Source: Pirellulaceae bacterium
Lineage (GTDB): Bacteria; Planctomycetota; Planctomycetia; Pirellulales; Pirellulaceae
DNA: 64,000 nt
Direction of reading: 5' to 3'
Assembly (NCBI GenBank): GCA_041753315.1
Contig: JBGSUV010000142.1
Span: 139-64,138 of the forward strand
The notes under the pieces were generated by a model. The model was not told the origin of the DNA. It saw only the letters and a list, made by a program, of their open reading frames with translations, and ran no database searches. Positions within the stretch are counted from its first letter, which is position 1. Each line of letters begins with the position of its first letter. The position numbers were made by a program, and so were the translations under genes. This document shows positions 38,211-56,125 of this stretch, one piece after another.

Positions 38211-38244
38211 TGAGGAACTCCATACCAGAGAGCCGCGCCCAAAT

Positions 38245-38323
38245 GTAGAACAATTGTCCCCATTGTAGAACAATTGTTCCCAATTGTTTTGATCTCAATG
38301 TAGAACAATTGTCCCCAATTGTT
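38245..38323 (+). repeat. Three tandem family-A REP units
   Basis: GTAGAACAATTGT(C/T)CCCAATTGTT at 38245 (truncated), 38265 and 38300. Confidence 0.9.
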
Positions 38324-38543
38324 TTGGTCTTTGACAACTTATTTGACTCATGCACCAGAGTCGTTGGGCGTCGCGTACCTGGCGGCTCCGACGACTATTC
38401 AAGAACGTTTCGGCGCTGCTTGCCACTCACCTTCATTCGCTGCTGCAAGCACTTGAGCAAGCGCCATTTGGTCTTCTTTACCTGATGGATAGCCAATGAT
38501 GTTGGCATGATTCAGAGGTCTCGGCGGCCTGGGCTGGCAGATG

Positions 38544-39138
38544 GTTGATATCGCAGAGGACGCATGGCGAGAGTCGAAAGATCGTGAAGTGATGCGGTTG
38601 TGTTCAGCTCAACGCGACGAAGAAGCTAAGTAACGCGAACACTGAAAAACTCACACGCGTCTTGCAATGCCATGGAAGACTCTGGGGGCATCCAAGGGTG
38701 AATGGGGATGGATTGGATTGTCAGGCACATTCGCTAAACTGAACAGCGTATTATAGCTCTCACATCATTCCTACAAGCAATTTGATAGACCAGGGTATTC
38801 TGGTGGGCCGCTGTTGCCGGATTTGTGGAATGTCGAAGGCGAATGAGCAGTTCGGTGGGAAAGGGGCGCGGGCGGTGACCTGTCGTTCGACTTCGATTGT
38901 CGAGATCGATTTGTTGCGAGGCGGGCCTCGACTGCCCATCAACGATCTGCCGACATGCGATTATTGCGTGACCGTCTTTCGAAAAGCCAATGCGCCAAGT
39001 GTGGAAGCGTGGCCGATTGCCTTGCACGATGCCTTGCCGGACGTTCCAATTCCTTTGAAGGGAGGCTTTGCTGACGCCAAGCTTGACTTGAAGGCGCTGC
39101 TGGATCGCGTTTATGATGCGGCGGGTTACGAAGATTAG
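38544..39138 (+). pseudogene. Mosaic relic: cas3 fragment + copy of 50148-50451 + DUF4058-like C-terminal fragment
   Basis: 38544-38608 matches 47657-47721 (63/65); 38608-38886 is homologous to 50148-50451; then VEIDLLRGG...DLKALLDRVYDAAGY. Confidence 0.85.
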
Positions 39139-39160
39139 TTGCGTCCCCGAGGTACTAGTG

Positions 39161-40633
39161 ATGAGTATGTTGCGTGAAATTTTGCTCTTGATGCTGCTGG
39201 TCATGGCACGGCCGATTCTAGCAGGCGAGTTTGACGTGGTCGATTCATTCGTACAGCAACGGATGAAAGAGGTCGGCGTTCCAGGCGTGGCAGTCGCTAT
39301 CGTAAAGGAAGGCAAGATCGTTTATACGAAAGGGTACGGTGAATCATCGCCCGGGGTGCCGATCACTCCACAGACTCCGTTTCTTTTGGCATCGCTTACA
39401 AAGTCCTTCACAGCTTTGTCCGTCATGCAATTGGTCGAGGAGGGGAGGATCGATCTAGACACGCCGATAACGAGATACCTGCCGCAGCTAAACTTCGCCG
39501 ATGAAGCCTCAGGAAAAATCACGGTTCGGCAACTACTAAACCATACAAGCGGCTTCTCGACTTTGTCGGGACGCAAACACTTCTTTTCTCGTGATGTCGG
39601 GCAGGAAGCCCTGGAACGTAGCGTCCGCGATCACTCTGCTGAACGGTTGACAGCCTTACCCGGCAAAAAATTTCAGTATTCGAACGTAAACTTTAACATG
39701 GCCTCTCTGATTGTCGCGAAGGTCTCTGGTCAAACCTTCGAGCAATACATCCGCGAGAGGATATATGCTCCCCTGCAGATGACCAGCAGTTTTACGAACG
39801 AAGCCGACGCTCAGACGCATGGATTGACGATCGGTTATCGCTTTTGGTTCGGCATCCCCATAGCGGCAAACGATATCCCATACTCTCACACAGGCTTGGG
39901 ATCCGGAGGACTTTTGTCTTCAGCGGAAGATTTGGCTCGATACACACTCGCCAATTTGGGCGATGAGAGTGGTCAAGTGCTTTCGCAGACAGGCTTTGCC
40001 GAGATACACAAGCCCGGAGTTCACATCGTCCGGGACATTCATTACGGCCTTGGTTGGCTAGTGAGTAAGAAGCCTGATGGGCTTGTCATATGGCATCGCG
40101 GTGACATGGAGTGTGTTCACACCGACATCATGATGGCGCCAGACGAAAAGATTGGAGTAGATACATTGATGAACGTAAACTCTCCGAGCAAAGGTACTCA
40201 ATTGATTAACATCGCTGAAGGTGTGTTCGGTCTGGCGCGAGGCAAAGATCCGAACATGGTCAGTGACGACCCGGTACCTACGATAGTGATGTTCACGATC
40301 CTAGCGATCTTCATTATTCAAGTCGTGTGGGGATGTCGTTTTATTCTCAAACTTCGCCGTTGGCAGCGTCAGCCCGAGACGAAACCGAGACGCTGGAGGA
40401 TATTGATCGGAGTAATATTCTCGGTCGTTCTCAATCTGACGATAGCCATCGCGATCTTCATGGTGCTACCGGCTGTATTTGAAACTCCATATTCCAGCAT
40501 CTATTTATTCATGCCAGACGCATTTGTGATCACAGCCCTATCCGGCGGCTTCGCCCTGCTGTGGGGCGTAGCAAGAAATTTCCTGGCGTTTCGCCAAGTC
40601 ACCAAGACCGCTCTGACTGGTAAGGGGGCTTAA
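39161..40633 (+). CDS. Serine hydrolase, beta-lactamase/class C PBP family, with C-terminal TM helices
   Basis: SLTK (SxxK), YSN and HRG motifs; signal peptide; three C-terminal TM segments. Confidence 0.9.
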   Translation: MSMLREILLLMLLVMARPILAGEFDVVDSFVQQRMKEVGVPGVAVAIVKEGKIVYTKGYGESSPGVPITPQTPFLLASLTKSFTALSVMQLVEEGRIDLDTPITRYLPQLNFADEASGKITVRQLLNHTSGFSTLSGRKHFFSRDVGQEALERSVRDHSAERLTALPGKKFQYSNVNFNMASLIVAKVSGQTFEQYIRERIYAPLQMTSSFTNEADAQTHGLTIGYRFWFGIPIAANDIPYSHTGLGSGGLLSSAEDLARYTLANLGDESGQVLSQTGFAEIHKPGVHIVRDIHYGLGWLVSKKPDGLVIWHRGDMECVHTDIMMAPDEKIGVDTLMNVNSPSKGTQLINIAEGVFGLARGKDPNMVSDDPVPTIVMFTILAIFIIQVVWGCRFILKLRRWQRQPETKPRRWRILIGVIFSVVLNLTIAIAIFMVLPAVFETPYSSIYLFMPDAFVITALSGGFALLWGVARNFLAFRQVTKTALTGKGA

Positions 40634-40965
40634 GGGCAGAGCGACCACAAATCTCCTGGATGAAAAAGTCGCCATCAAAAATAGTCACGATCCGGTCAAT
40701 ATCGGCATCACCGTATTCGATGACAAAATCGATATCATGGGTTGATCGCGGGATACCCCAATAGTTGCTTGCCATTGAACCAACCAACATGTATTCAACC
40801 GACGATTGATTCAATCGTCGCAAGCAATCTACCAGCAATTCCTGTTCAGTCATTGCGTATCCCAGCGTTGACTTGAGACGTGTACGCCAAGCGTATTCGT
40901 TGATGGAGCTGTTCTTCGACAAAGGCCTTGTCTGCGTCCGGGTAGCGTCCGCGAATGCCGTCGCG
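40616..40965 (-). pseudogene. Internal fragment of the nucleotidyltransferase/antitoxin pair, duplicate of 56766-57115
   Basis: 350-bp direct repeat with about 11 substitutions (~97%), truncated at both ends. Confidence 0.92.
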
Positions 40966-41268
40966 ACTTATTTAACTCATGTACCAGAGCCGTTCAAAGT
41001 GGCAAGTGAGGCACTCAACCCTGAAGAATCATGGAAGAGCTGTATACGAAAATGCTCGGCATGGGTTCCGTACGAAATCAATTTGTCTCCACTGGGAACT
41101 AGAATATGATTCAAGGGCGGCTGCGTAGCGTTGCAGGGAGCCGGCTTTTGCACGCGCGCTTCTCGAGAGTTTGATCCCTCTCCGCCTCCGTCTCCGCTCG
41201 TGCGACATGATGACCGATGTACTTGATCAGTCGTCATTCGAAACGCTCCCGGCCTTTAACGCTCTGTG

Positions 41269-41655
41269 CTATATGTCAGGCTTGTCAGTTCTCGGTTCGA
41301 GCGCAATCACGATTTGGCTCCCGATCGCAGAAGCGTAGCGTTGCAAGTAGGCGAGAGTCGGGTTCGGAGCCTTGCTATTCTCCAGTCTCGACAGCGCCGA
41401 CTTGAGAATTCCCGTTCGGACCGCCAGTTCTGCAAGCGAAACTCCCGCGGCCTCTCGAGCTTCGCGAAGTTTCTGAACGATGGCCACAGCTTCCTCGCAG
41501 GCCTCGACAACCTTTGGTGCCATCATCTTTGCCGCCGCGATATTGTCCTCTTTTGCTGCCGCTTCCTCCGCCAAAGCGAGCTGAAACTGCTTACGTTCTT
41601 CATCGGTCATGGATGGGTATGCATTACGATCTGGCTTGAGCATGTTTTCATCCAT
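41269..41655 (-). CDS. XRE-family HTH protein (HigA-like antitoxin)
   Basis: REAAGVSLAELAVRTGILKSALSRLEN...NPTLAYLQRYASAIG HTH_3 pattern. Confidence 0.85.
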   Translation of the reverse strand: MDENMLKPDRNAYPSMTDEERKQFQLALAEEAAAKEDNIAAAKMMAPKVVEACEEAVAIVQKLREAREAAGVSLAELAVRTGILKSALSRLENSKAPNPTLAYLQRYASAIGSQIVIALEPRTDKPDI

Positions 41656-41707
41656 TTAATTAGTCTGCGATCCAGCGAGCGCGATCAGTCGATTCCAAGA
41701 TAGGTAG

Positions 41708-41953
41708 TTAGTCAATTTCGTAAGCTGTTCGAGGTTCGATCTGCGTATGCTCATGATCCAGCCAGTCAAATACGCAGAACAGGACTCGGCCATCGTCAGT
41801 GACACCAACGACTGCGGGACGTCCTGTACTCCGACTCTTAGTTCGTTCGCTCCGTGCGTCCTGCACAACAGCTTCAAAATCCTCGGGAGCTACACCGTTA
41901 TCCGCTAAATGCTCGACGATTTCGTCCGTCCAGTGAAAGAAATAGTAGGGCAA
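41708..41953 (-). CDS. BrnT/RelE-fold-like toxin
   Basis: 81 aa from a TTG start with AAGGTG RBS; FHWTDEIVEHLADNGVAPEDFEAV...GRVLFCVF...RTAY pattern; directly upstream of the HTH gene. Confidence 0.7.
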   Translation of the reverse strand: MPYYFFHWTDEIVEHLADNGVAPEDFEAVVQDARSERTKSRSTGRPAVVGVTDDGRVLFCVFDWLDHEHTQIEPRTAYEID

Positions 41954-41994
41954 GGTGTTCACCTTAATGTTAACTCGCTGCGTGAGAAAAATCC

Positions 41995-42030
41995 AGTTCA
42001 ATGAGGCCGCGTTCTTTCGAACGCGGAAAG
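41995..42030 (-). CRISPR. Solitary CRISPR repeat variant (candidate crRNA-like RNA with spacer-like flank 41954-41994)
   Basis: CTTTCCGCGTTC-GAAA-GAACGCGGCCTCATTGAACT, 31/36 identical to the array repeat; 8-bp stem intact; all changes in the loop and the last 2 nt. Confidence 0.92.
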
Positions 42031-42031
42031 G

Positions 42032-42371
42032 GTGTCAACCAAGTTGGTTTCACAGCGGCGATGCCGCGGTATCCACATCAATCGACGCGGCCTAAAAGTT
42101 GAAGCACAACTGCATGACGAATCTGAATTGGCTTTGCAGGTCGACCGTGCTCTCAGGAAGTCAGCGACTTGGAAGAGTCTATCGGCGCATCAACGTCATG
42201 TCATCGTGCAATGCGTGATGCTCGACTGCTCTCCAGCAAGCGTAGCGCTCAAGCTTGGTCTAAAGGCGTCAAACGGTTGCAAGCTGGGCAGTTCGAATTC
42301 CCAAGCGACTGGCAACAGAGCCAGCCTTTCAAAAATTGAAGCGGCAGTTGGAGGTAAAAGATGGACAATGA
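42032..42371 (+). pseudogene. Sigma70 region-4-like HTH gene with an apparent +1 frameshift near 42272
   Basis: LSAHQRHVIVQCVMLDCSPASVALKLGLKAS continues in the shifted frame as TVASWAVRIPKRL...KDGQ-stop, which overlaps the next ATG; start uncertain. Confidence 0.5.
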
Positions 42372-42549
42372 GTCCCTACTTGATTGCTGGACGATGTTCA
42401 GTCGAGAACACGACAACATTTCTGTGGACCGAATGCTCTGCGCTCCCGAACTCCGCTCAAAGTTCCTTGTGTCGGTGGCAGGCAACGATCCGACCGCAAC
42501 CGCTCCAACGGCAACTAGTGGGACTGAGGAAGAACAAAAAAAATACTAA
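42361..42549 (+). CDS. Short hypothetical ORF, possibly truncated at an A8 tract
   Basis: MDNESLL...SVDRMLCAPELRSKF; stop follows the A8 run at 42536-42543. Confidence 0.35.
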   Translation: MDNESLLDCWTMFSREHDNISVDRMLCAPELRSKFLVSVAGNDPTATAPTATSGTEEEQKKY

Positions 42550-42553
42550 AAAA

Positions 42554-42569
42554 GCTAGAGAAATCCTAA
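42554..42569 (-). promoter_or_regulatory. Candidate PAM + partial protospacer (TTA-GGATTTCTCTAGC) for the solitary-repeat guide, in the cas7 upstream region
   Basis: Matches guide positions 1-6, 8-10 and 13; next to an A-tract and a weak GTGACC-N16-TACTGT promoter candidate (42574-42601). Confidence 0.55.
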
Positions 42570-42648
42570 CCCAGTGACCTAACGTGTCACACGGATACTG
42601 TAGTCTGCGTCTTAAACCAATTAACACCTTCAAGCTTCGGAGATTCAA

Positions 42649-43926
42649 ATGGCAAGTTCGTTCGATTTGTCTGCAGTACAAGAGGCCGTCAAAAGTGCGG
42701 CGGCATTGCGCCGTCGGAGTAAACTTCAATCGGCTGGTGGCGAAGGAGACAAAGTGTTTCCGCCGACGTATGCGAACGCGGTTTATGCGACAGAGAAACG
42801 TCGCGTCGAAGGATATGACAATCCTGTTGATTGTGTATTGCTTGATTCCGTGCAATCTCAAGCAAATCGAATGGAGGAAGCCTTGCAGCAAGCGGTCGAC
42901 GGTGGACGATTGACAATTCCAGTCATCGAAGTCGATTTCACGAAGTTCTTCCCCGGTGATGACCAACCGGAAGATTTGAGGCTGATTGATCCGGTCGGCA
43001 AGGTAACTTCGTTGCAAGCTCCGCACCGCATTGCTGACGCGATCCTGCGTGACAGCATTGTGATTGAGGATGGTAAGCAGTTTCGGGCGTCGAAAGAATG
43101 CGATGAATCGAGCTATGGTCAACGCCTGCGCCGCGTCTCGAACCAAGATGCGACAGTATTGTTTGAGTTGTGTCCCACGGCACTTATTTTTGGAATGTGG
43201 GATTCGACTGGACCAAAAGGTGGCTTGGGAGCAAAGTTTGAACGGGCATTGGTTAGCGAAATTATTGGTATCGATGCAACTCGCGGAGTTCGGTCTAGTA
43301 GCCGTATTGATCCGCTGGGAATACAAAAAGAAGCTGCCCTACTTTACGCGAGCAAAGAAGGCGGTTGGACACTAGATAAAGCTGATGCGAAAACTGAAAA
43401 AAGCAAACCAATGCTATTGGGCAAAGACGGGAAGCCTTCAGAAGCCAATCATGGCAATGTGACGCCGGACTTGAAGGACAAGAAGGGACAAGCTTACCAT
43501 GGTGGCGTAACGATTCATCATGCATTGCAAACGACCGTCATTTCGCTCGCTGCCCTTCGTCGATTGCGGTTTCCAATTGATGGGGAGTGGAGTGATGAAG
43601 CAGATCAGGCGGCTCGGACGGTATTGGTTGCAGTGGCGTTGTGTGCCGCGGCGCTGGCTGATGAATCGGGGCTGGACTTGCGTTCTCGATGTGTGCTCTA
43701 CGGCAATGAACCGCTGACTTGGTCATTGCTTGATCGCAAGCAACCCAAAGAACTCAGCTTGTCTGGAGACGAAGCAATTGAACTGCTGGATGCAGCAGTC
43801 GCCGCCGCTAAGAAGCTCGGACTTCCGTGGCGTGAAGAACCGTTGCAACTTCGTCCAAGTGAAAAACTGGTCAAACTCGTCGCCAAGAGTCAGCTACTCG
43901 CAGTGCAAAAGGGAGCAGAGGAATGA
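42649..43926 (+). CDS. cas7: Type I-G CRISPR-associated Cas7 (Csb1/GSU0053 family)
   Basis: KVFPPTY, LLDSVQSQANRMEEAL, PHRIADA, LIFGMWDS and SSRIDPLGI motifs. Confidence 0.95.
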   Translation: MASSFDLSAVQEAVKSAAALRRRSKLQSAGGEGDKVFPPTYANAVYATEKRRVEGYDNPVDCVLLDSVQSQANRMEEALQQAVDGGRLTIPVIEVDFTKFFPGDDQPEDLRLIDPVGKVTSLQAPHRIADAILRDSIVIEDGKQFRASKECDESSYGQRLRRVSNQDATVLFELCPTALIFGMWDSTGPKGGLGAKFERALVSEIIGIDATRGVRSSSRIDPLGIQKEAALLYASKEGGWTLDKADAKTEKSKPMLLGKDGKPSEANHGNVTPDLKDKKGQAYHGGVTIHHALQTTVISLAALRRLRFPIDGEWSDEADQAARTVLVAVALCAAALADESGLDLRSRCVLYGNEPLTWSLLDRKQPKELSLSGDEAIELLDAAVAAAKKLGLPWREEPLQLRPSEKLVKLVAKSQLLAVQKGAEE

Positions 43927-45656
43927 GCGATCTGACAATTGCTTGGGAGTATCTCACAGGCTACTGTGTCGCCAGCCATCCGAGCCGTCGCGATCGGGCA
44001 GAATGGCCACCGCATCCGGCCCGCGTTTACATGGCGCTCGCCGCCGCATGGTTTGAATCGGAACCGATTGCTGAAGATAAAGCGGCGCGAAAAGATCATG
44101 AAGCCGAAGGTGGGGCGTTGCGTTGGCTTGAGGGTTTGGGCGATCCGGAAATTTCCTTGCCACGAGTAGATCGAGAATTCGAGCGGACGAACGTTGACGT
44201 GTTTGTTCCAATCAACGATTCAGCAGGACCATCGGCTGCTATCCTGCAATCCGCACCTACGCTGACCCGCGACAAGCAACCTCGTTGCTTTCCACGAGTC
44301 TATGTTGGCGACGATCCATGCGTGCTATTGTGGCGTGATGTGAATGATTTAGAAACGCATCAAAATGCGTTATCACAGTTATGTAGCAAAGTCACTCGTA
44401 TTGGTCATTCTTCCTCGATGGTATCGATGTGGGTCGCGACTAATGACGAGCATCCACGAACCGAATCGGATTCGTTGATTCCAGATGTCACGTCCTCGGA
44501 CATGCGCGCGAGAACGATTCCAAACGGGTTTCTCGACATTTTGACCGACCGATTCGGCAAGGAGTGTCGCGATCAGCACGAGCTAATTGGCGAACAAATA
44601 GAACAACTGAAAACCCAGAAAAACAACGTCAAAGGCAAAGGAGCTAAGGAAGCCAAGGCCGAGATTGATTCACAGGTAGAAACACTGGAAGTTGAGCTTG
44701 CGAAAATATCGTTTCAGCCCGCCGTTCGCCCCACGACTTCTAGCTGGAGCGGCTATCGAAAACAGACTCTCATTGCGCACAAAACACTCGCGCACAGTGG
44801 TTTTGACACGGACGTTCTCGTACTCGTCGGCCAGCGGGATTTACGACTGTCTGCTGAAAGCACTTTGTTAGCTACAGAAACACTGCGCCGAACCATTATG
44901 AGCGTCATCCCAGACCCAGTGCCGAATTGGATCACCGGTCATCGAACGAGTGGTGAACCATTGCAAGATGGAGTAGGGCATATTGCGTGTTTTCCATTGC
45001 TGTCATCGGGATTTCCGTATTCGGACGGCCATCTTTTGGGCGTCGGAATTGTTTTCCCTCGCACGGTGAGTCGACAAGATCGCGGCTTGGCCATGCGTTC
45101 GCTGTTGGTTGAGCCACATGGAAGCCAAAAAGAAGTTCGATTGAAGTTTGGGCGACTTGGCGAGTGGAGTTTGGTTCCTCGCGATTGGACTGAAGAAAGA
45201 GTTGCACTTAAACCCGAAACTTGGACAGCGGCCCCGAATGGAAGGATGACGTGGGCTAGTGTCACGCCAGTCGTGTTGGATCGGTTCCCCAAAGCAGATC
45301 GGATCAAGCAACGAACACAATGGACCGATGAGGTAATTGGATTGGTCGCCAAAGCTTGTGAAAACGTTGGGCTCCCACGCCCAGCGGACATTGATGTGGA
45401 CACAACCTCGTGGCAATCAGGTTCCCCGCGAGCGTTACAAAAGCGTCGCCCATTGCGCGGACAAGATTCAAGTTCAACGAATCAAGCTGCGCTGGGTAAC
45501 GGGTTCCCTGCTTACCCAGCCAAGAGCGGAAACGGCTCGAAGCCGCAAGTTCATGTGTGGCTTAGATTCTCGGAAGCAGTCGTAGGACCAGTGATTCTTG
45601 GAGCTGGGCGTTACTTGGGTTACGGACTTTGCATGCCTTGGAGCGAACCACGATAA
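43923..45656 (+). CDS. csb2: Type I-G Csb2 (Cas5-Cas6 fusion, GSU0054 family)
   Basis: EWPPHPARVYMALAA N-terminus; WASVTPVVLDRFP; C-terminal GPVILGAGRYLGYGLC G-rich loop. Confidence 0.95.
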   Translation: MSDLTIAWEYLTGYCVASHPSRRDRAEWPPHPARVYMALAAAWFESEPIAEDKAARKDHEAEGGALRWLEGLGDPEISLPRVDREFERTNVDVFVPINDSAGPSAAILQSAPTLTRDKQPRCFPRVYVGDDPCVLLWRDVNDLETHQNALSQLCSKVTRIGHSSSMVSMWVATNDEHPRTESDSLIPDVTSSDMRARTIPNGFLDILTDRFGKECRDQHELIGEQIEQLKTQKNNVKGKGAKEAKAEIDSQVETLEVELAKISFQPAVRPTTSSWSGYRKQTLIAHKTLAHSGFDTDVLVLVGQRDLRLSAESTLLATETLRRTIMSVIPDPVPNWITGHRTSGEPLQDGVGHIACFPLLSSGFPYSDGHLLGVGIVFPRTVSRQDRGLAMRSLLVEPHGSQKEVRLKFGRLGEWSLVPRDWTEERVALKPETWTAAPNGRMTWASVTPVVLDRFPKADRIKQRTQWTDEVIGLVAKACENVGLPRPADIDVDTTSWQSGSPRALQKRRPLRGQDSSSTNQAALGNGFPAYPAKSGNGSKPQVHVWLRFSEAVVGPVILGAGRYLGYGLCMPWSEPR

Positions 45657-48600
45657 TGGACGTCAAAGCAGAACACTTTGCCAATTTTTTCCGCGAACTG
45701 CATTCAACGAGCCAAAGGCAGGCAGAGCCCTATCCGTGGCAATGCCGACTGGCTGAGCGTGCAACGTGCGGAGATTGGCCCGGCGCTATTGACTTGCCAA
45801 CCGGTAGCGGAAAGTCTGCGTGCATTGACATCGCTGTGTTTGCATTGGCCTGTCAAGCATCGTTGCCTGTTGAAGAGCGTAACGCGCCACGTCGTATTGT
45901 TTTCTGCGTGAACCGTCGTGTAATTGTTGATGAAGCGTACCAACGATCCCACAAGATTGCGGAATCGCTTTGGCGTGCTGAGCGGGACAATGATCCAGAG
46001 AAACCGACGCTGGTTGCTGTTGCAAAATGCCTTCGAAATATGGCGGGATATAGTGAAACCATCGCGGATGTTCCTCCGCTGGATGCATTGGAGCTGCGGG
46101 GCGGTATCTATCGAGACAATCGCTGGGCGAGATCTGCGGTGCAGCCAACCATCATTTGTTCGACCATTGACCAAATTGGTTCACGATTGCTGTTTCGCGG
46201 TTATGGTGTATCGTCCAGCGCAGCTCCGATTCAAGCGGCATTGTTGGCTTACGATAGCCTGATTCTGTTGGATGAAGCGCACATTAGCCAACCACTTCTA
46301 CAAACGGTCCAATGGACGCAGAGATATCTCGATCCAACGCGATGGGCGCGCGAGAAGTTTGGCCCCAAGCCGATGTTGTTTGTCCCGATGACTGCCACAC
46401 CAACGACGGAAATGCAAAATCGTGGTGTGATCCATCTTCAGGAGGATGATCGCTCCGACAAATACCCACTTATTGCTCGCCTCAAAGCGAAAAAACCGAC
46501 GCTGCTTCAGTCCGATAAAGATATTGTTCATGCTGCGATAAAAGCAGCCAAGGATCGTCTGATCGACGAGCCGAAATCAATTGGCATCATCGTAAATCGC
46601 GTTGCGTCGGCGAGAACTATCTATGCCGAGTTGCAAATGCTAACAAGCAAAACTCCTGAGCTAGTCGTTGAATTGGTCATTGGCTCGATGCGTCCTGTTG
46701 ACCGCGATAAACAGCAGGAGCGACTTCGAGAAACAATCGGACCGGAGCGGCCAAGAAAGACTGAAACGAACAGCGTTACGATTTCGACACAGTGCTTAGA
46801 AGTAGGTGCGGATTATGACTTCGACTTCCTCATCACCGAATGTGCGTCGCTTGATGCGCTGAGACAACGATTCGGAAGATTGAATCGTAAGGGGCGCGAC
46901 ATCGACGCCGAGGGGCTGATATTGATCAACGAGAAACAAGTTCAGGAAGAGGAAAAGCTTGATGATACAAAACTTGTTGATGCAATCTATGGCAACGCAC
47001 TCTCGCGAACCTGGAATTGGCTTAACGAAGTTGCGGAAGAAGGTCGCGTAGATTTTGGTCTGGATGCATTTGCAAAATTGCTTGTAGATCGCGGCGAGAA
47101 TGGCCGACCACCTTGTGAGTTGTTATCACCAGCAGCGAGCTTGAACTCTCCAGTGATGATGCCCGCATACGTTGACCTTTGGAGCCAAACGTCACCGAGA
47201 CCAGAGGTCGACCCCGATGTGTCGTTGTTTATTCATGGCCCTCAAGAGGCGATGCACGATGTGCGAGTCTGCTGGAGAACCGATCTGGAAAATAATGAGT
47301 CAACTGAAGCTTGGATCGACATCGTGTCCATGTTGCCACCAACTTCTGCTGAATGCATGAGCGTTCCGATATCGAGGTTTCGCAAATGGGTTCTTAGTGA
47401 AAGTGAATTCGGTGAGACTCAATCAGACATGCTTGCAGCTCAAGAAAATACTGGGTCGCAGAAAAAGGGAAATAAGAAGGAACAAGATTCACTTCACTCG
47501 ACGTTCATTATCTGGCGCGGAAATGAGAAATCGGTCAATGTAAATAGCGTGAAAAAACTCGGGCGATTGCGTCCCGGCGATACTTTGGTGTTGCCTGTTT
47601 CGGCAGGGGGATGGAGTGAGCTTGGACACGTTGTGGTCGAGGAGGGTGAAGTAGAAGTTGATATCGCAGAGGACGCATGGCGCGCGTCGAAAGATCGTGA
47701 AGTGATGCGGTTGTGTTCAGCGACGCGAAAGCTATATCCAGAAGGTGAGTCCGTCAATGACCTATTCGCTGCTGCGGCTGAAATTGACGAACCATTGCGA
47801 ATTGAGCAGTGGCGGGAGTTGCTCATTCGTGTCAGCACCGAACTATCGGAATCAGATCCGGAACTGAGCAATCGTTTTGAACGACTAGCAGACCGAAAAA
47901 CGGGTTTAGTCGTCGAGCGTTATCCCGACGGTTGCGGTGTGGTGTTGCTGAGCTGTCGACGCTTGGGGTCACACATTTGGTTCTTGCCACCTTTAGATGA
48001 AGGTGACGACGAACAATCACACATCAGCGGGCAAAGAGAATTGTCGTTGACTGAGCATACGCAAGATGTTGTGACATTCGCGAAACGATCATGTGAATTA
48101 TTGTTGCCAGAAGAGTTGTTGGAATTGTTTGCGCTCGCTTCCGAGTTGCACGACTTGGGCAAAGCTGATGAGCGGTTCCAAGCGATGCTGCGGCGAACGA
48201 GCTGCACAGATGCATGGCTGCACTGGCAAAATGACGGCTCGCTGTTGGCGAAATCAGAGGGTAAGGCCTTGTCACGAAAGGACGCGAATGCCGCGCGTAT
48301 ACGAGCGGGATTGCCGAAGGGTTTTCGTCACGAAATGCTATCGTTGCAACTCGCTCAGCGGTGCGAACAACTGCCGTCAGATGATCTGCAACGCGACTTG
48401 GTTCTTCATTTGGTCGGCTCGCATCACAAGCACTGTCGTCCCTTAGCACCAGTCGTAGACGATCCATGTCCGCCGGACGTTCAAGTTGGTAATCTGTACA
48501 TCAGCGGTGAAGATCGACAGCTCAATCTGTTACACGGCTTCGATTCAGGAATACCAGGGCGGTTTTGGAAGTTGACTCGACACTTCGGATGGTGGGCTTT

Positions 48601-48700
48601 GGCATATTTGGAATCAGTCCTTCGATTGGCGGATCAACAAGCAAGTGCATTGGCAGAATCGCGAACGAAAACAGAACCAGAAGCAGAGGGTAATTCGTAA
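45656..48700 (+). CDS. cas3: Type I-G Cas3 (N-terminal SF2 helicase, C-terminal HD nuclease)
   Basis: LPTGSGKS, DEAH and QRFGRLNR helicase motifs; C-terminal LTEH, LHDLGK, FRHE and SHH; ATG overlaps the csb2 stop. Confidence 0.95.
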   Translation: MDVKAEHFANFFRELHSTSQRQAEPYPWQCRLAERATCGDWPGAIDLPTGSGKSACIDIAVFALACQASLPVEERNAPRRIVFCVNRRVIVDEAYQRSHKIAESLWRAERDNDPEKPTLVAVAKCLRNMAGYSETIADVPPLDALELRGGIYRDNRWARSAVQPTIICSTIDQIGSRLLFRGYGVSSSAAPIQAALLAYDSLILLDEAHISQPLLQTVQWTQRYLDPTRWAREKFGPKPMLFVPMTATPTTEMQNRGVIHLQEDDRSDKYPLIARLKAKKPTLLQSDKDIVHAAIKAAKDRLIDEPKSIGIIVNRVASARTIYAELQMLTSKTPELVVELVIGSMRPVDRDKQQERLRETIGPERPRKTETNSVTISTQCLEVGADYDFDFLITECASLDALRQRFGRLNRKGRDIDAEGLILINEKQVQEEEKLDDTKLVDAIYGNALSRTWNWLNEVAEEGRVDFGLDAFAKLLVDRGENGRPPCELLSPAASLNSPVMMPAYVDLWSQTSPRPEVDPDVSLFIHGPQEAMHDVRVCWRTDLENNESTEAWIDIVSMLPPTSAECMSVPISRFRKWVLSESEFGETQSDMLAAQENTGSQKKGNKKEQDSLHSTFIIWRGNEKSVNVNSVKKLGRLRPGDTLVLPVSAGGWSELGHVVVEEGEVEVDIAEDAWRASKDREVMRLCSATRKLYPEGESVNDLFAAAAEIDEPLRIEQWRELLIRVSTELSESDPELSNRFERLADRKTGLVVERYPDGCGVVLLSCRRLGSHIWFLPPLDEGDDEQSHISGQRELSLTEHTQDVVTFAKRSCELLLPEELLELFALASELHDLGKADERFQAMLRRTSCTDAWLHWQNDGSLLAKSEGKALSRKDANAARIRAGLPKGFRHEMLSLQLAQRCEQLPSDDLQRDLVLHLVGSHHKHCRPLAPVVDDPCPPDVQVGNLYISGEDRQLNLLHGFDSGIPGRFWKLTRHFGWWALAYLESVLRLADQQASALAESRTKTEPEAEGNS

Positions 48701-49848
48701 TGTCCCAATACGTTCGATCAACTAATGATCTGAAACCGCTTAAGCTGGAAGGTATTGATGGCAGCAATCCCGCTGGTTTCCTGGCCACTTTAGGCGTTCT
48801 GGGAACGATCTGCCGTGATGCAGCAAATAACCAATCGCAACTTTCGTGGCATGAAAAGGCAGGCGTTTGGAATCCCGTTTTTCATTCTGAATGCGAAAGT
48901 GTCGCCGAACTATCACACCTTTTGGCCCAAGTGCTGCGGTGTCCATTTTCGCCTGACGCCACCTCAGAGGTTCGGCGTGAACAACGACAAAAGGCGTTCG
49001 ACACCAAGCGGACAGGATTGAAAAACTTGCAGGCCGAACTCAAGAAAAAAAAACTACGCGGCAAAGAACGTGACGCAGAATACGCGATCTCCGTTGCGCC
49101 AGTCGAAGCCGAGGTTGTCAAGCTGCGTTCAGATTGGCTTGCCGCCTTAAAAGCGTGTGTACCCTCTTCGGAACTCGCTCTTGGCAAACACCTCAATGCA
49201 GAGCAACCGGAATTGCGGGATGCGTTGCGTGACGCTGCAGAGATAGCAACCGTCGATTCGAGACAAACCGCTGATATGCTAGCGTCCTTTGGATCTGATG
49301 TGTGTTTGAAACCGAAGAGCGACAAAATGGACCCCACGCCCTTTTGCTTTACTTCCGGTTCGGGAAATCAGTATTTTCTTGATACCGCGCGCCGCCTGAG
49401 TGAAAGAATTACTGCCGCCTTATTGGAAAAATCACTTTCAACAAATGAGCCAGCACAAGATGAGAAGCTTTCCATGCGATGGGATCCGAACGAAGATCGA
49501 CGTTATGCTTTGATGTGGGAAAATCCAACTGCCAACGGCAACGAAGCCTTGACGAATTGGCCAATCAATCTTCTCGCGTATCACGGACTGCAACTGCTGC
49601 CGTCAGTGCCGACTGCGGCTGGGCTTAAGTCGGCAGGGTGGTCGAAGCACGAGCAAGAGAACTTCACTTGGCCCATTTGGACCGCTTTGCTAGGAATTGA
49701 TTGCGTCCGAACAATCATGTTGCAAAATTCTCAGAGGCTGTTCCAGCATCAGTGTGAAGTTGCTGCCATCTTCCAGTCAACGCGATTACAAGTCGGCAAT
49801 CCGCCCCTTCACAAGATCAATTTCTCACCCGCACGCAACGTGTATTAG
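48700..49848 (+). CDS. cas8g: Type I-G large subunit Cas8g (short Csb3-like form)
   Basis: GIDGSNPAGFLATLG, SGNQYF, MRWDP.EDRRYA and FTWPIW motifs; position after cas3 with a 1-nt overlap. Confidence 0.8.
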   Translation: MSQYVRSTNDLKPLKLEGIDGSNPAGFLATLGVLGTICRDAANNQSQLSWHEKAGVWNPVFHSECESVAELSHLLAQVLRCPFSPDATSEVRREQRQKAFDTKRTGLKNLQAELKKKKLRGKERDAEYAISVAPVEAEVVKLRSDWLAALKACVPSSELALGKHLNAEQPELRDALRDAAEIATVDSRQTADMLASFGSDVCLKPKSDKMDPTPFCFTSGSGNQYFLDTARRLSERITAALLEKSLSTNEPAQDEKLSMRWDPNEDRRYALMWENPTANGNEALTNWPINLLAYHGLQLLPSVPTAAGLKSAGWSKHEQENFTWPIWTALLGIDCVRTIMLQNSQRLFQHQCEVAAIFQSTRLQVGNPPLHKINFSPARNVY

Positions 49849-49910: not shown

Positions 49911-50174
49911 ATTAGGGAAGAGCTGGTTCAGCGAGGGTTCGACGAGCCAATCCAAGTCCGTCTCTGGTCCGCCGAAACCATGGTAGCAAGAAAGCTCAAG
50001 GGTTTCGTTTTACGCCGCAGCGCACCAAAACAACAACTTCCGTCCGCAAGTTCATGGGGAGCCACAATCACATTCAAAGAACCGCAAACTGGACCGATAA
50101 TGTTAGGTTACGGCAGTCATTTCGGCCTGGGCTTGTTTTCCCATCCACTCCAATGCGACGAAGAAACCAAGTAA
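49911..50174 (+). pseudogene. 3' fragment of a second, divergent csb2
   Basis: REELVQRGFDEP...ITFKEPQTGPIMLGYGSHFGLGLF; no start, stop codon immediately upstream. Confidence 0.8.
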
Positions 50175-50367
50175 CGCGAACACTGAATAACTCACACGCG
50201 TCTTGCAATGGCATCGAAAACTCTGGGGCCGATCCAAGGTTGAATGGGGATGGATTGGATTGTCAGCCACATTCGCTAAACTGATCCAGTGTAGAGCAGT
50301 TGTCCTCAACTGCTTTAGTGTTCCTCACAGCATTCATTCAGACATTCCGATAAACCAAGGTAAGCTA

Positions 50368-50766
50368 ATGGGCCGTTGTTGCCGGATTTGTGGAATGTCG
50401 AAGGCGAATGAGCAGTTCGGTGGAAAAGGGGCGCGGGCGGTGACCTGTCGTAGTTGCCGACAAATGCCCAAGGAAGAACTGCTGCGGATCGTGGTAACCG
50501 ATGAGGTGTACGGCTTTCTCGATCAACGCAATATCTCTCCAAGAAATATCGCTCGACTCTGCGAACTCACCGAAATCAATGATCCGCCCTTTCAAACGTT
50601 GAGGAACATCGTGCTCGAAATCGCCACGGTGACTCCACGTAAACGAAGACGGTGGAAAATCTTGCCGGATAAACACCCAGATCTGTTCCAACGAATCGTT
50701 GAGTCCGAATTGTTCGATGACATCCTCGATGAACAGTTCGATCCGATGGAGTGTGAGGAAGAGTGA
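50368..50766 (+). CDS. Hypothetical protein with an N-terminal CxxC...CxxC zinc ribbon
   Basis: MGRCCRICG...TCRSC; 132 aa. Confidence 0.7.
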   Translation: MGRCCRICGMSKANEQFGGKGARAVTCRSCRQMPKEELLRIVVTDEVYGFLDQRNISPRNIARLCELTEINDPPFQTLRNIVLEIATVTPRKRRRWKILPDKHPDLFQRIVESELFDDILDEQFDPMECEEE

Positions 50767-51170: not shown

Positions 51171-53613
51171 GCTTCAATGAGGCCGCGTTCAATTGAACGC
51201 GGAAAGGCAATGTGCCCCGGCGTCTTGTCCTCCTCCCCGTCGCTTCAATGAGGCCGCGTTCAATTGAACGCGGAAAGTGAGACGCGGCCGAGAAGCTGGT
51301 TGCTGTCGTGGTTGCTTCAATGAGGCCGCGTTCAATTGAACGCGGAAAGTTCTTTGAAGTCCACTATCGAGTGCGACGGCTAAGAGGCTTCAATGAGGCC
51401 GCGTTCAATTGAACGCGGAAAGCTCGACCTGGCCAGCGAAATGCGAGCGGCGCAGGTGCTTCAATGAGGCCGCGTTCAATTGAACGCGGAAAGGCGGTCG
51501 CTACGGACTGATCGACACGAACTACTGGCTTCAATGAGGCCGCGTTCAATTGAACGCGGAAAGATGTCCATTTGAGCATTCGTGGCCACAAACCAATTTG
51601 AGCATTCGTGGCCACAAACCTGACGCTTCAATGAGGCCGCGTTCAATTGAACGCGGAAAGTTGTTCGCTGATTTCGCAGACGCTCAAATATTCCGCCGCT
51701 TCAATGAGGCCGCGTTCAATTGAACGCGGAAAGACGAAAAGATGAACGCAAAGTTAATCACAACGCGAGCTTCAATGAGGCCGCGTTCAATTGAACGCGG
51801 AAAGGTCGACTCGGATTCGCAAAAGTTCAATCTTGTAGACATGCTTCAATGAGGCCGCGTTCAATTGAACGCGGAAAGAATCTCCGTACTGACCTGGATG
51901 CCGTAGCCCGATTCGCTTCAATGAGGCCGCGTTCAATTGAACGCGGAAAGGACAAGGGCAGCTATAAAACGTCGGCTATCATCCTTGCTTCAATGAGGCC
52001 GCGTTCAATTGAACGCGGAAAGCCGGTATCGAGTAAGAAGGTTTTGAATTGAACATCACGCTTCAATGAGGCCGCGTTCAATTGAACGCGGAAAGCCCAC
52101 CAACGCAGAAAGAGAAAACGAAGGGCGAGACGCTTCAATGAGGCCGCGTTCAATTGAACGCGGAAAGTGGTTGAATGCCGTGGTCATTGCTTTCAAACCA
52201 TAGCTTCAATGAGGCCGCGTTCAATTGAACGCGGAAAGATCCTTTCCGCGTATAAAGCATCTTCTCTTTCGAGCGCTTCAATGAGGCCGCGTTCAATTGA
52301 ACGCGGAAAGGACACAACGCAGGTGGCCGCAAAGCTAACCAAGATCGCTTCAATGAGGCCGCGTTCAATTGAACGCGGAAAGGCAGCGTACTCGACCGCT
52401 TCGAAGTTGAACGACACGCTTCAATGAGGCCGCGTTCAATTGAACGCGGAAAGTGCGGTACTGCGGACACCGCTATCGTGCCGACTACGAGCTTCAATGA
52501 GGCCGCGTTCAATTGAACGCGGAAAGGTAGCTTGTTGTTCGGCACATGCGATCAATCCAGTCGCTTCAATGAGGCCGCGTTCAATTGAACGCGGAAAGCA
52601 CCTCCGGGAACGCATCGTGAACAACTTGATCAAGGGCTTCAATGAGGCCGCGTTCAATTGAACGCGGAAAGGCGCAGCAGTTGTACCAGGGAGCGGATAT
52701 CCGTGTTGCTTCAATGAGGCCGCGTTCAATTGAACGCGGAAAGCGAACGGCGCAAGGCCAATCTTGATCCATGGCCCGACGGCTTCAATGAGGCCGCGTT
52801 CAATTGAACGCGGAAAGCATGATCTCATCCGACAGTACGTCCAATTCCTTTTCGCTTCAATGAGGCCGCGTTCAATTGAACGCGGAAAGCGTAGCGGCTG
52901 ATCCCGATTCAGCCGACGGCGTCTTGCTTCAATGAGGCCGCGTTCAATTGAACGCGGAAAGCGCGCCGTCAACCGACAATCGTCCCGCCTTCACGTTGCT
53001 TCAATGAGGCCGCGTTCAATTGAACGCGGAAAGATGGCAGACGTACCGCAAGCTTTCACTGTGGCTGGAAGCTTCAATGAGGCCGCGTTCAATTGAACGC
53101 GGAAAGATCGACACCGTCTATCGCTGCCCATGCTGCGGATGCAGCTTCAATGAGGCCGCGTTCAATTGAACGCGGAAAGAATGGTGGCTTGTGGTGAGGG
53201 ACCATTACCACAAGAGCTTCAATGAGGCCGCGTTCAATTGAACGCGGAAAGATGGATTGAAGGGGAGATTTTAGGCCGAGTTAGCTGCTTCAATGAGGCC
53301 GCGTTCAATTGAACGCGGAAAGGCCTTCGCATTTCGCTGGTTGAGCGATGGGAACAATTGGCTTCAATGAGGCCGCGTTCAATTGAACGCGGAAAGTTCG
53401 CTTGCCACAACACGGTTTCCAGGAACTGCGCCGCTTCAATGAGGCCGCGTTCAATTGAACGCGGAAAGAGATCGACGGTTCGGGGTTGTCCGGATCGAAT
53501 ACGCGGCTTCAATGAGGCCGCGTTCAATTGAACGCGGAAAGTCAGCGGACAGCCAAGCAACGACGAGCGTACCAATGGCTTCAATGAGGCCGCGTTCAAT
53601 TGAACGCGGAAAG
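51171..53613 (-). CRISPR. Type I-G CRISPR array: 34 repeats, 33 spacers
   Basis: 36-bp repeat CTTTCCGCGTTCAATTGAACGCGGCCTCATTGAAGC (minus strand; ATTGAAGC 3' end); spacers 34-38 bp except one of 61 bp; counted by hand. Confidence 0.98.
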
Positions 53614-53819: not shown

Positions 53820-55634
53820 TCAACGTGTTACAAATACCGGGTAATCACGAAGCTCTCCCAATAATACTCGCGCCAATAACCGCGTCTGCAATTCTAACAA
53901 ACGACGGTAACTGACACGATAGCCAAATAGCGGATGCGTGACCAATTGATCCATCCGCTGTTCATATGAACGGAAAAAGCCCTTGCGACCCGCCGGTGTT
54001 AAGGCAACCGATTCTCCCACCCGTATGAAATCAGTTGGCGTTACCATCCGTTGATTAATCGCACTCAGCACCGCCGAATCAACCACCAACGGTCGAAACG
54101 GTTCCATCAAATCAAGCGCCAGGGCAGGGCGGCCAAATCGAGGTTGATGGTAAAAGCCAAGATACGGATCCAAGCCAACCGCCGCCGCTGCAATCGTCAA
54201 ATCCTTCGCCAACAAACTATACCCCAGCGATAACAACGCATTGACCGGATCACGTGGTGGACGACGATTGCGATGCCGAAATGCAAATGTAAACGGACTT
54301 CCCGTTTCCAACCGTTCGCTGGCCGCTTCTCCAACTTTCAACATTCCCGAAAAATGCTGAAAATAAACGCGTGCCGCCAGACCCTCAAAGCCTAAGAGCG
54401 CTGCCAAGTCCTCGGCACGCTCAGCATCAAACGAAATCGACTTGAGAAACCGCAGCGCCTCGGCGGGAGGCTCCACATGATTCCGCATTAACAACGTCCG
54501 CTGGTTGCGAATCTTGCCCACTACCAACTGCCGGGCCAGCGCCAGACAGAAACTCGACCGATCCGCCTGCCGAAACTGCTCGCGCCGCCACATGATATTT
54601 TTCAAGCCAACCGGTTGGGTCATCCCATGAAACCAGCCTCCAAAGCTGAAGTAAATCAACGGAATCTCCGCCGCCAATAACGCTTGCACCGCCTGCGTGG
54701 AAACTTGAACATTGCCAAACAAATTGACCTGATTGATCTCGTTCAAACGCACCTCTTGAACGAGCTTGGCCTTGTCCTTCACCTTCAAAACCTGATCCGA
54801 TATGCCTACTGAATAGCCTTGCGTATTCAAATACAGCGGTCGCTTCTCGTCACGCGGTGTAATGAGTTGACGGATGGCTATACTCGATTCACCCATTTCA
54901 ACGCGTCGCACACCGAACTGCGGGCCAATGTCAAAGAGCAATGGCTGAACCGCCCCAACGTCGCTGCGAGCATCGGTCTGGGCACAACGCGTTGTTTCAT
55001 CAGGCAAGCAAATCGTAACCAGAGAACAACGCGGACACTTGGGGCTGTCGACCAATGGCGGTGGCAGCGTTTGAGAATCAATGGTCTGCAGCGCTGCGGT
55101 GATCGCTGCCGTCGTCGTTTGAATCAGTTCGTCATCAATGGCAATTCGCACTCGTTGCCGCGTCTCCCAGAAGAACAAAATGCCTTCAGTGCAACGATAG
55201 CCGTTCTCTCGCAATACGAGCGCTTGCACACATAATTGCACGCGCTCAGGATCCCAGGCGCCAAGCGTCCCGTCTTCAAGCTTCTTAGGCGAGCCGCGTT
55301 TGTAGTCGATGGGCGTTGCCTGTTCCCCATCCGCTTCGACCAAATCCAACTTTGCTATAATCCCATACCGTTCGCTCGATAACGTCACGCTCCGCGCGTG
55401 AATCACATCGCGCTCAGTTGCCACACCGGCGGCGGCAGGAAGAGGATCACTTTTTGCATCCACGCGTTGGTGTCTTACCGACCCCTCTACGGTATCCGCA
55501 TTGTGGGCAAACAAGCCTTCGACATACTCGAGGTAAAACAGCCGCGGGCAATAGACGAATTCGTTAATCATCCGAGCTGGCAATAACTGTTCTTCGCGGT
55601 CCATCGCGTCAGCTTCTGGACGCGCGGTTATCAT
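53820..55634 (-). CDS. cas4/cas1: Cas4-Cas1 fusion
   Basis: YCPR, KLDLVE, DYKRG and CPRCSLVTIC (Cas4 Fe-S); GFEG, NALLS, FYH and DLMEPFR (Cas1); start could be 55604. Confidence 0.96.
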   Translation of the reverse strand: MITARPEADAMDREEQLLPARMINEFVYCPRLFYLEYVEGLFAHNADTVEGSVRHQRVDAKSDPLPAAAGVATERDVIHARSVTLSSERYGIIAKLDLVEADGEQATPIDYKRGSPKKLEDGTLGAWDPERVQLCVQALVLRENGYRCTEGILFFWETRQRVRIAIDDELIQTTTAAITAALQTIDSQTLPPPLVDSPKCPRCSLVTICLPDETTRCAQTDARSDVGAVQPLLFDIGPQFGVRRVEMGESSIAIRQLITPRDEKRPLYLNTQGYSVGISDQVLKVKDKAKLVQEVRLNEINQVNLFGNVQVSTQAVQALLAAEIPLIYFSFGGWFHGMTQPVGLKNIMWRREQFRQADRSSFCLALARQLVVGKIRNQRTLLMRNHVEPPAEALRFLKSISFDAERAEDLAALLGFEGLAARVYFQHFSGMLKVGEAASERLETGSPFTFAFRHRNRRPPRDPVNALLSLGYSLLAKDLTIAAAAVGLDPYLGFYHQPRFGRPALALDLMEPFRPLVVDSAVLSAINQRMVTPTDFIRVGESVALTPAGRKGFFRSYEQRMDQLVTHPLFGYRVSYRRLLELQTRLLARVLLGELRDYPVFVTR

Positions 55635-55647
55635 GAGTCGATACCAT

Positions 55648-55938: not shown

Positions 55939-56125
55939 GCACGTGTACCTGAGCGAATGAATGGCGGCGACTTCTAGCATAGTTGGCGACACGTCCCTCG
56001 ACTGCATCCGTGCACTGAGTTGCTCAAGAAAAAGCAAAATGCTGGGGGGAGACGCGCGATGTTACAGGACGCGCATCGGTTGGGGTGGGGTGATTCGAGT
56101 TGGCTAGCGGGGGGAAGGGTGCGGG

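Follow-up and report, generated by a model that had tools for sequence, protein, structure and literature searches.

The window analysed here, a stretch of 64,000 nucleotides on contig C142 of a Pirellulaceae-like genome (8.36-Mb assembly, 196 contigs), harbors a type I-G CRISPR-Cas locus (short palindromic repeats, clustered and regularly interspaced, and CRISPR-associated genes). Outside the array, a single CRISPR repeat-like sequence adjoins the cas genes; the cas7 ATG is 619 bp away and the array 9.1 kb. We conclude that this solitary repeat is probably a relic of the distal repeat (psiR2) of a degenerated mini-array of the CreR/CreA type, without guide function and adjoining an ordinary toxin-antitoxin promoter. 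We draw this conclusion because the repeat aligns with the psiR2 of related loci, ends in the degenerate sequence ATTGAACT, shares the position and the leader of these psiR2 repeats, and because the first repeat (psiR1), the spacer and the target are all absent. The features on which the argument turns are the following, with positions counted along the window.

41995-42030, minus strand (read 42030->41995): solitary repeat CTTTCCGCGTTCGAAAGAACGCGGCCTCATTGAACT, 31/36 identical to the array repeat CTTTCCGCGTTCAATTGAACGCGGCCTCATTGAAGC
Within it: intact 8-bp stem CCGCGTTC/GAACGCGG, loop GAAA, 3′ end ATTGAACT as opposed to ATTGAAGC in the array
41967-41995, minus strand: promoter-like element of the toxin operon, with a -35 box TGGATT (41995-41990), 17 nt and a -10 box TAACAT (41972-41967)
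41708-41953, minus strand: gene of a BrnT/DUF4258-like toxin, 81 amino acids, TTG start at 41953
41269-41655, minus strand: gene of an XRE-family helix-turn-helix (HTH) protein, the presumed antitoxin (PF13560, E 1.8e-10)
42031-42102, minus strand: position that psiR1 and the spacer occupy in relatives, with a doubtful remnant CCGCG-17 nt-CGCGG followed by CATCGCC
42554-42569, minus strand: TTA GGATTTCTCTAGC, claimed earlier as protospacer-adjacent motif (PAM) and target; a chance-level match in a T-rich spacer region
42649-43926, plus strand: Cas7g/Csb1, ATG at 42649

The preliminary description of this DNA had reported a lone 31/36 repeat on the minus strand that keeps its stem, carries a GAAA loop and lies 9 kb from the array, all of which we could confirm. 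The five differences from the array repeat fall into the loop (AATT to GAAA, three changes) and the last two bases (GC to CT, two changes), leaving the stem unchanged. The last eight bases form the AUUGAACU handle, whose first base is 42002, and the 3′ flank reads GGATTTTTCTCACG. In the whole genome, exactly one further such stem was found outside the array, on contig C65. A scan of positions 41200-42700 against Rfam returned no family at E ≤ 1.

Type I-G loci were fetched via Cas7 homologues from the genomes of relatives (one genome per species) and from metagenomes; they are denoted here by L numbers. A blind pair-finder was run on the 117 fetched loci (102 non-redundant), employing a handle ATTG[AG]A[AG]N, a TT PAM and thresholds of at least 9/10 matches over positions 1-5 and 7-11 and at least 12/15 over the non-sixth positions of 1-17. 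It returned pairs at 16 non-redundant loci plus L003 and L047, and three more came from toxin-linked loci, giving 21 in total. Each of these 21 related I-G loci contains a two-repeat mini-array that consists of psiR1, a 35-37-nt spacer and psiR2. The hairpin of psiR1 is often poor, and the repeat carries the 8-nt handle ATTGAAGN (canonical end ATTGAAG(C/A/G/T)); psiR2 has a good hairpin with its last few bases degenerate. In the closest relatives, the hairpin upstream of cas7 that resembles a repeat corresponds to the second of the two, and the strong nearby TTN-flanked matches belong to the spacers and not to the flanks of psiR2. The intact mini-arrays are situated between the I-G cas operon and a toxin-XRE pair or other small genes. 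Four of the pairs read as follows.

L010: PAM TTT; mismatches in the PAM-proximal block at positions 6 and 12
L011: PAM TTC; mismatches at 6 and 8; the match leads directly into TTGACA-N17-TAAGAT
L003: PAM TTA; mismatches at 6, 12 and 14
L047 (contig C65 of the same genome): PAM TTA; mismatches at 6, 12, 15 and 18

All 21 pairs reach 9/10 or more and 12/15 or more. Mismatches affect position 6 in 18 of them and position 12 in 17, any other position within 1-17 in at most 5 of 21, and the paired block mostly ends at position 18, i.e., after about 17-18 nt. As judged from the sequences, this pattern is the signature predicted for a guide of a type I Cascade, in which every sixth base would be flipped out and pairing would be deliberately partial. 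Published I-G systems use a TTN PAM. The preliminary description had assumed the same, and our control agrees with it: TT gave 18 pairs vs 0-7 (mean ~2) for the other 15 dinucleotides and was thus the sole enriched one, and all 21 targets are TTN, TT being required in the search. A handle-agnostic search recovered real pairs only with the ATTGAAGN handle, and a G at position -2 is found in every one. The targets abut or overlap promoter boxes, which here and below are matches to the consensus only: TTGACA-N17-TAAGAT in L011, TTGACG-N17-TAATAT in L136 and TTGATC-N17-TATAAA on C65. Moreover, the psiR2 hairpins covary, with compensatory changes in 6 of the 8 stem pairs, and the differences concentrate in the loop and at the 3′ end. 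As labelled in the sequence records, the loci with mini-arrays span Planctomycetota, Verrucomicrobiota, Acidobacteriota, Chloroflexota and others. Given the guide-target pairs, the TT enrichment, the promoter-abutting targets and the covariation of psiR2, autoregulation of the CreR/CreA type by predicted guide RNAs is well supported for the type I-G family. Hence, what the preliminary description had proposed as RNA-guided autoregulation of cas genes stands for the family, with 21 TTN-flanked, promoter-adjacent pairs, and fails for the specific site in the window.

In the intact relatives, Csb2 would cut both repeats, as expected from type I biology, and Cascade would load the resulting RNA, which resembles a CRISPR RNA (crRNA). 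The first ~17-18 nt of this RNA would pair with the TTN-flanked, promoter-abutting site, positions 6 and 12 remaining free. Such short pairing would permit binding and promoter occlusion without cleavage by Cas3; we infer both the binding of Cascade and the repression from other subtypes.

At L011, psiR2 is followed directly by a third repeat-like hairpin (TTCCACGTTCAATGAAACGTGGC; 2415-2460, minus strand). It resembles the array repeat more closely than either psiR1 or psiR2 does, has a G-C pair replaced by A-T in compensatory fashion, and runs with its 3′ end into the ATG of the XRE HTH gene. A small kinase-like gene paired with a gene of ~85 amino acids recurs beside the mini-arrays of L010, L011, L047 and L132.

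The preliminary description had assigned the 3′ flank of the solitary repeat the role of a guide that leads Cascade to a site upstream of cas7. In our alignment, the window repeat aligns with the psiR2 of L134, L136 and L137, after which all continue into the conserved leader GTTA(A/G)CAT...GTGAAC...ATGCC. At seven loci, the toxin operon shares one architecture, i.e., T[T/G]GNNN, 17 nt (16 in one), TA[A/G]CAT and 12-15 nt to the start codon. Since these boxes, their spacing and the leader are conserved across loci, the claimed guide is the predicted promoter of the toxin-antitoxin operon, from its -35 box across the spacer to its -10 box. The claimed seed GGAT is partly common to L137 (TGAT) and L139 (GGAT), where it belongs to the promoter; the guide is thus not free to covary with a target. 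At L133 (~700-730), a terminator-like hairpin (CCCCGCGCTTCGGCGCGGGG, then TTTT) lies between psiR2 and the toxin promoter and would insulate the toxin-antitoxin operon from transcription of the mini-array.

The toxin has homologues of 42-81% identity, some of which are named DUF497 by the Joint Genome Institute. Six of 14 family members match PF14076 (DUF4258) or PF04365 (BrnT), with best E-values of 6.5e-5 and 1.4e-4; the window protein itself has no Pfam match, and a sequence search of the PDB with the toxin gave no match. Its XRE HTH partner is 39% identical to the HTH protein of L011, whose gene follows the mini-array there. The toxin-HTH pair is conserved at the loci of 7 of the 8 homologues looked up (L132-L134, L137, L139, L140, L143, L144), and the sequence of L136 ends just after the toxin gene. 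Five toxin loci (L132, L134, L136, L137, L139) directly adjoin a divergent I-G-type cas3 or a sigma-like gene. A full mini-array precedes the toxin gene in L132/L143, L133, L134 and L136; it is decayed in L137 and absent in L139. A gene for a WYL/WCX-domain regulator is found near the toxin-HTH pair, downstream of it, in L132, L134, L139, L140, L143 and L144.

According to the model of the preliminary description, the lone repeat acts as psiR1, and an RNA cut by Csb2, reading AUUGAACU-GGAUUUUUCUC... (AUUGAACU-GGAUUUUU), guides Cascade to 42569->42554, where it binds beside the cas7 promoter and adjusts cas expression. The quoted sequence, TTA-GGATTTCTCTAGC on the minus strand 80 bp before the cas7 ATG, is indeed present. 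It is the best combined PAM and seed match in the window, it is found in the correct intergenic region, with a conserved inverted repeat upstream of cas7 at a distance of 4 nt, the hairpin is intact, the I-G family clearly uses such regulation, and single-repeat creA genes have been reported (PMC9458426). However, guide GGATTTTTCTCACGCAG and target GGATTTCTCTAGCTTTT match at only 8 of the 10 positions 1-5 and 7-11 and at 9 of the 15 non-sixth positions of 1-17, with seed mismatches at 7 and 11 and the paired block ending at position 10. The window pair thus has 6 non-sixth mismatches in positions 1-17, compared to 0-3 in real pairs (n = 21).

We compared this match to null sets of random window 17-mers, shuffled guides and T-rich 17-mers, each scored against the 90 TTN sites in the 618-bp interval between the repeat and cas7. 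The probability of a best score of at least 8/10 was 0.042 (random), 0.032 (shuffled) and 0.065 (T-rich), and that of at least 9/15 was 0.35, 0.34 and 0.45, respectively. Guide and target are both T-rich. Another TTN site of the window, at 44520, scores 8/10 and 11/15 against the claimed guide. Furthermore, the psiR2 3′ flanks of 15 relatives, employed as pseudo-guides and thus as a further null set, gave best TTN-flanked scores of 6-8/10 and 7-11/15, the same level as the window. The chance estimate of 4e-4 given in the preliminary description was made post hoc with respect to both pattern and location, and the interval tests replace it with P-values of 0.03-0.07 (ten positions) and 0.35-0.45 (fifteen positions). 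The window element therefore shows no PAM-flanked promoter complementarity above chance, and no alternative register yields a pair. We conclude that the resemblance of the window guide to the cas7-upstream site is a coincidence and that the specific guide-target claim is not supported.

The same holds for the comparison across loci. A search for covarying guide-target pairs in related I-G loci, which the preliminary description had proposed, yielded 21 differing pairs for true spacers and none for the psiR2 3′ flanks. Homologous loci that keep the repeat without a guide-target match, named there as evidence that would speak against the model, are what we found for these flanks. The handle of the window repeat, moreover, has a C at -2, where every real pair has a G. 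With the repeat being positionally homologous to psiR2, its handle degenerate (ATTGAACT), its flank a conserved toxin operon promoter and its match at the level of chance, we regard the model of a lone repeat acting as psiR1 as very improbable.

On the other side of the repeat, where the relatives carry psiR1 and the spacer, little is left. No GGCCTCATTGAAGC-like psiR1 motif of at least 10/14 was found upstream of the repeat, and no ATTGAAG handle within 42031-42102; no proximal repeat with an intact 8-nt handle in front of a spacer-like sequence accompanies the solitary repeat. Neither between the repeat and cas7 nor in the wider cas region was there a psiR1-like motif, or a guide that had a TTN-flanked partner in any register, and no pair of at least 9/10 arose from 42031-42102. 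A decayed psiR1 tail CATCGCC similar to that of the window is seen in L137. With psiR1 handle, spacer and target missing, no guide could be made in the canonical way.

Several candidates were tried and rejected. The sequence ATTGATGT at 42082-42075, taken as a psiR1 handle, would give a 44-nt spacer; no target exists for that register or for the 36-nt one. We also looked 30-60 nt downstream for a second repeat, where only a weak CTTTCAC...GACGAAATCGTC turned up, at a distance of 54 nt and within the coding sequence of the toxin; we attribute it to chance. An exact ATTGAAGC at 42335-42342 (plus strand), in front of the ribosome-binding site of a small open reading frame (ORF), follows a 5-bp hairpin, has no similarity to the repeat and reaches 8/10 with its best target, so that it was likewise put down to chance.

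The interval between the repeat and cas7 contains two further features.

42176-42338 (within 42032-42577), plus strand: remnant of a sigma-70 region-4-like gene, corresponding to residues ~119-172 of the 178-amino-acid L010 protein, with a frameshift near 42260
42361-42549, plus strand: conserved small ORF of 62 amino acids with a GGAGG ribosome-binding site, immediately upstream of cas7

The sigma remnant was found by tblastn, with matches in two frames. A sigma-like gene heads the cas operon in L010 and L136, the homologue of L136 matching PF08281 weakly, and the 62-amino-acid ORF is 52% identical to its counterpart in L010 (3705-3914). When the DNA upstream of cas7 was aligned with L010, L011 and L047, nothing aligned apart from the repeat itself and the coding sequence of cas7; we therefore traced homology through proteins and motifs. 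From sigma residue 119 to the edge of psiR2, L010 measures 683 bp and the window 146 bp, so that ~540 bp are absent relative to L010. From these distances, we infer a single deletion, in which psiR1 and most of the spacer were lost together with the target and promoter region and the 5′ two-thirds of the sigma-like gene.

Some observations weigh against the assignment as a psiR2 relic and against its history. The psiR1 remnant at 42031-42102 is a weak assignment. The deletion is inferred from loci of 73-83% Cas7 identity whose upstream DNA is not alignable, and close relatives with the pre-deletion state were not found, the best Cas7 identity being 83% in genome collections and 62% in metagenomes. 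As creA genes with one recognisable repeat have been described (PMC9458426), an invisible psiR1 does not by itself exclude function. Moreover, the hairpin is perfect, and all five differences avoid the stem and its flanks, which under random placement has a chance of ~1.6e-5; the solitary repeat is therefore either recently orphaned or still selected. L137, whose mini-array is likewise decayed, has lost the hairpin. Finally, the handle of the solitary repeat retains ATTGAA (6/8), more than most psiR2 repeats do.

The perfect stem, with all substitutions lying outside it, is also the starting point of a different explanation. The hairpin might be kept as a binding or cleavage site of Csb2, through its Cas6 domain, in toxin-antitoxin transcripts that read through it, coupling expression or the fate of the mRNA to the abundance of Csb2 or Cascade. 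Such an element would be a reduced, protein-toxin analogue of CreTA/CrePA needing no DNA-targeting guide. Consistent with it, the family's psiR2 hairpins show selection for structure, the toxin-HTH pair repeatedly adjoins I-G cas genes and mini-arrays, and the Cascade target of L134 and L136 is at the promoter from which transcription would run across the mini-array into the toxin gene. In the window, a promoter-like site on the minus strand (42204->42176) could read through the repeat, and the third hairpin of L011 abuts the start codon of the HTH gene. However, the conserved toxin promoter lies downstream of the repeat, so the main transcript would lack the hairpin; the terminator-like hairpin of L133 stands between psiR2 and the toxin promoter; and in L139 a toxin-antitoxin pair sits beside cas3 without any repeat. 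We consider this explanation possible but unlikely. A broader version combines the mini-array, the BrnT/DUF4258-like toxin and its XRE partner into one composite guard module, of which the window hairpin would be a reduced, guide-less and Csb2-responsive form. The dosage of toxin and antitoxin would be set jointly by read-through from the Cascade-repressed upstream promoter and by what Csb2 does at the hairpin, and loss or inhibition of Cascade or Csb2 would trigger the toxin. This version appears to us somewhat less likely still.

The surroundings of the locus bear on another alternative, in which the repeat is a stray copy of the array repeat that arose by ectopic recombination or aborted adaptation during rearrangements, with neither a mini-array in its past nor a function. 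Fragments of the island are duplicated upstream, within 38544-40965, covering pieces of cas3, of the region after cas3 and of a nucleotidyltransferase pair. In particular, 38544-38608 corresponds to cas3 at 47657-47721 (97%), 38610-38886 to 50151-50451 (82%) and 40616-40965 to 56766-57115 (97%), so the neighbourhood has been rearranged. Together with the identity of stem and flanks to the genome's own array repeat, these duplications favor a stray copy. Against it, position, orientation and downstream leader match the psiR2 of L134, L136 and L137, the 3′ end GGCCTCATTGAACT|GGATTT resembles GGCCTCATTAAACT|TGATTT of L137, and, as is the pattern among psiR2 repeats, it differs in the loop and at the 3′ end. 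We therefore hold a stray copy to be improbable, and the relic of a psiR2 remains our preferred assignment. An origin of the repeat as a collapsed array of the island copy at 38544-40965 was rejected, as it is not collinear with that copy. A gene of the beta-lactamase family (39113-40633) is located between the duplicated fragments, and a ~35-bp repeat unit (TGTAGAACAATTGTCCCCAATTGTT...) at 38238-38330, with dozens of genome copies across many contigs, is probably an element similar to repetitive extragenic palindromes or miniature inverted-repeat transposable elements.

Four genes that place the locus in type I-G are present in the window, i.e., Cas7g/Csb1, Csb2, in which Cas5 and Cas6 are fused, Cas3g, whose HD domain is C-terminal, and the fused Cas4g/Cas1g, with NCBIfam matches to TIGR02570, TIGR02165 (3e-75), TIGR02621 (1.2e-208) and NF049935 (2.2e-226). 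A large subunit cas8g of the Csx17 or GSU0052 type was not found among the window ORFs scanned. Apart from cas7, the locus comprises the following parts.

42649-49848, plus strand: type I-G effector genes as a whole
43923-45656, plus strand: Csb2
45629-48700, plus strand: Cas3g
48700-49848, plus strand: protein of the Cas3-extension family (NF049934), directly after cas3
51171-53613, minus strand: CRISPR array of 34 identical 36-bp repeats CTTTCCGCGTTCAATTGAACGCGGCCTCATTGAAGC, each ending in ATTGAAGC, leader on the cas4/1 side
53820-55634, minus strand: Cas4g/Cas1g
55648-56037, minus strand: Cas2-like ORF, completing the adaptation genes (53820-56037)
42574-42590, plus strand: inverted repeat GTGAC-N7-GTCAC, 59 bp before the cas7 ATG

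We read the array on the minus strand because the psiR1 handles of the 21 guide-target pairs support this orientation. One of its spacers, at 51564-51624, measures 61 nt vs the usual 34-38 nt, and within it a 26-nt unit is perfectly duplicated in tandem (51570-51620). The inverted repeat in front of cas7 follows the consensus GTGACCAAAGGTGTCAC and is shared by five loci, where it precedes the first cas gene by roughly 55-75 bp. In the relatives it is found at L010 ~3933-3949, L011 ~3921-3937, L047 ~6474-6490 and, at L137, ~140 nt upstream of the toxin gene, the copies of L011, L047 and L137 being partly degenerate. It is a candidate operator for a regulator, possibly an XRE, WYL or sigma-like protein. 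The minus strand at this place also scores as a promoter-like site, GTGACA-16-TAGGAT.

The genome contains a second, canonical I-G effector module on contig C65 (454-7260), with the order Cas3g-Cas8g2-Cas7g-Csb2 and an HNH gene in front; its Cas8g2 matches TIGR04106 (1.6e-76). Here, the mini-array is intact and consists of psiR1 (~7152-7189), the spacer CTGTTTCAGAGAGG... (7190-7224) and psiR2 (7225-7260), whose stem is identical to that of the window array. The TTA-flanked target (7113->7075, minus strand) lies just upstream of TTGATC-N17-TATAAA, whose orientation is towards the cas genes. Neither an array nor adaptation genes were found on this 8.8-kb contig. Regulation of the window operon in trans by the C65 mini-array was rejected, as the local target is the sole TTN-flanked match of its spacer of at least 13/15 genome-wide. 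The same genome thus offers a natural comparison between a regulator that is intact on C65 and one that was lost in the window, where array and adaptation genes were kept.

For the window, our result is mainly corrective. A lone repeat near cas genes calls for checks of the spacer side, of the intactness of the 5′ handle and of a match above chance, and the window repeat fails all three. For the type I-G family, the relatives point to a common rule across several phyla, comprising a TTN PAM, ~17-18 nt of pairing with positions 6 and 12 free and a promoter-abutting target. To our knowledge, mini-array regulation in type I-G has had no experimental test so far.

The closest known systems are the CreR regulators. 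Autorepression by degenerate mini-CRISPRs has been demonstrated in types I-B, I-E and V-A, and creA-like elements were also noted by manual inspection for I-D, I-C, I-E, I-F and I-U, as I-G was formerly called (Liu et al., bioRxiv 10.1101/2023.03.10.532045). As in CreR, the relatives and C65 have a degenerate two-repeat mini-array beside the cas operon, with a spacer that is PAM-proximally complementary to a PAM-flanked site at the effector promoter. In contrast, the window element is a psiR2 remnant lacking psiR1, spacer and target; furthermore, the I-G cases are known here from sequence alone, and several of the relatives' mini-arrays are fused to a protein toxin-antitoxin pair. We conclude that the I-G mini-arrays are further members of the CreR/CreA-type regulators, the window element being a degenerate one. 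The survey of Shmakov et al. describes cas-intergenic mini-arrays whose distal repeat is often degenerate, with tolerated mismatches at positions 6 and 12 and targets at effector promoters; it found them common in I-B, I-E and I-F1 and mentions I-G/I-U 0 times (bioRxiv 10.1101/2023.03.03.530964). The concept is the same, and the 21 I-G loci presented here extend its range.

The toxin operon invites comparison with two kinds of system. Like type II pairs of the BrnT/BrnA and DUF4258 kind, it places a small toxin gene first, followed by a DNA-binding antitoxin, and the toxin family shows distant similarity to PF04365 and PF14076. It differs in that the antitoxin is an XRE-family HTH protein and not of the BrnA type, and in that the window toxin, without a significant Pfam match, is a putative one. 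Within the collection of papers searched, none linked CreTA or mini-arrays with BrnT or DUF497. In CreTA, psiR1 is more diverged than psiR2, and one or two repeats are visible (PMC9458426); CrePA, from an I-F system, involves a protein toxin repressed by Cascade (bioRxiv 10.1101/2024.01.05.574328). The I-G loci resemble both in that a toxin gene beside the cas genes is linked to a crRNA-like CreA whose repeats are degenerate. They differ in that their toxin is BrnT/DUF4258-like and comes with an XRE antitoxin and, downstream of psiR2, a conserved promoter of its own, and in that the Cascade target lies at an upstream or cas promoter and not at the toxin-proximal one; the window, moreover, keeps no guide. 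The repeated link between mini-arrays and the BrnT/DUF4258-like pair suggests an I-G counterpart of the CreTA/CrePA guard systems.

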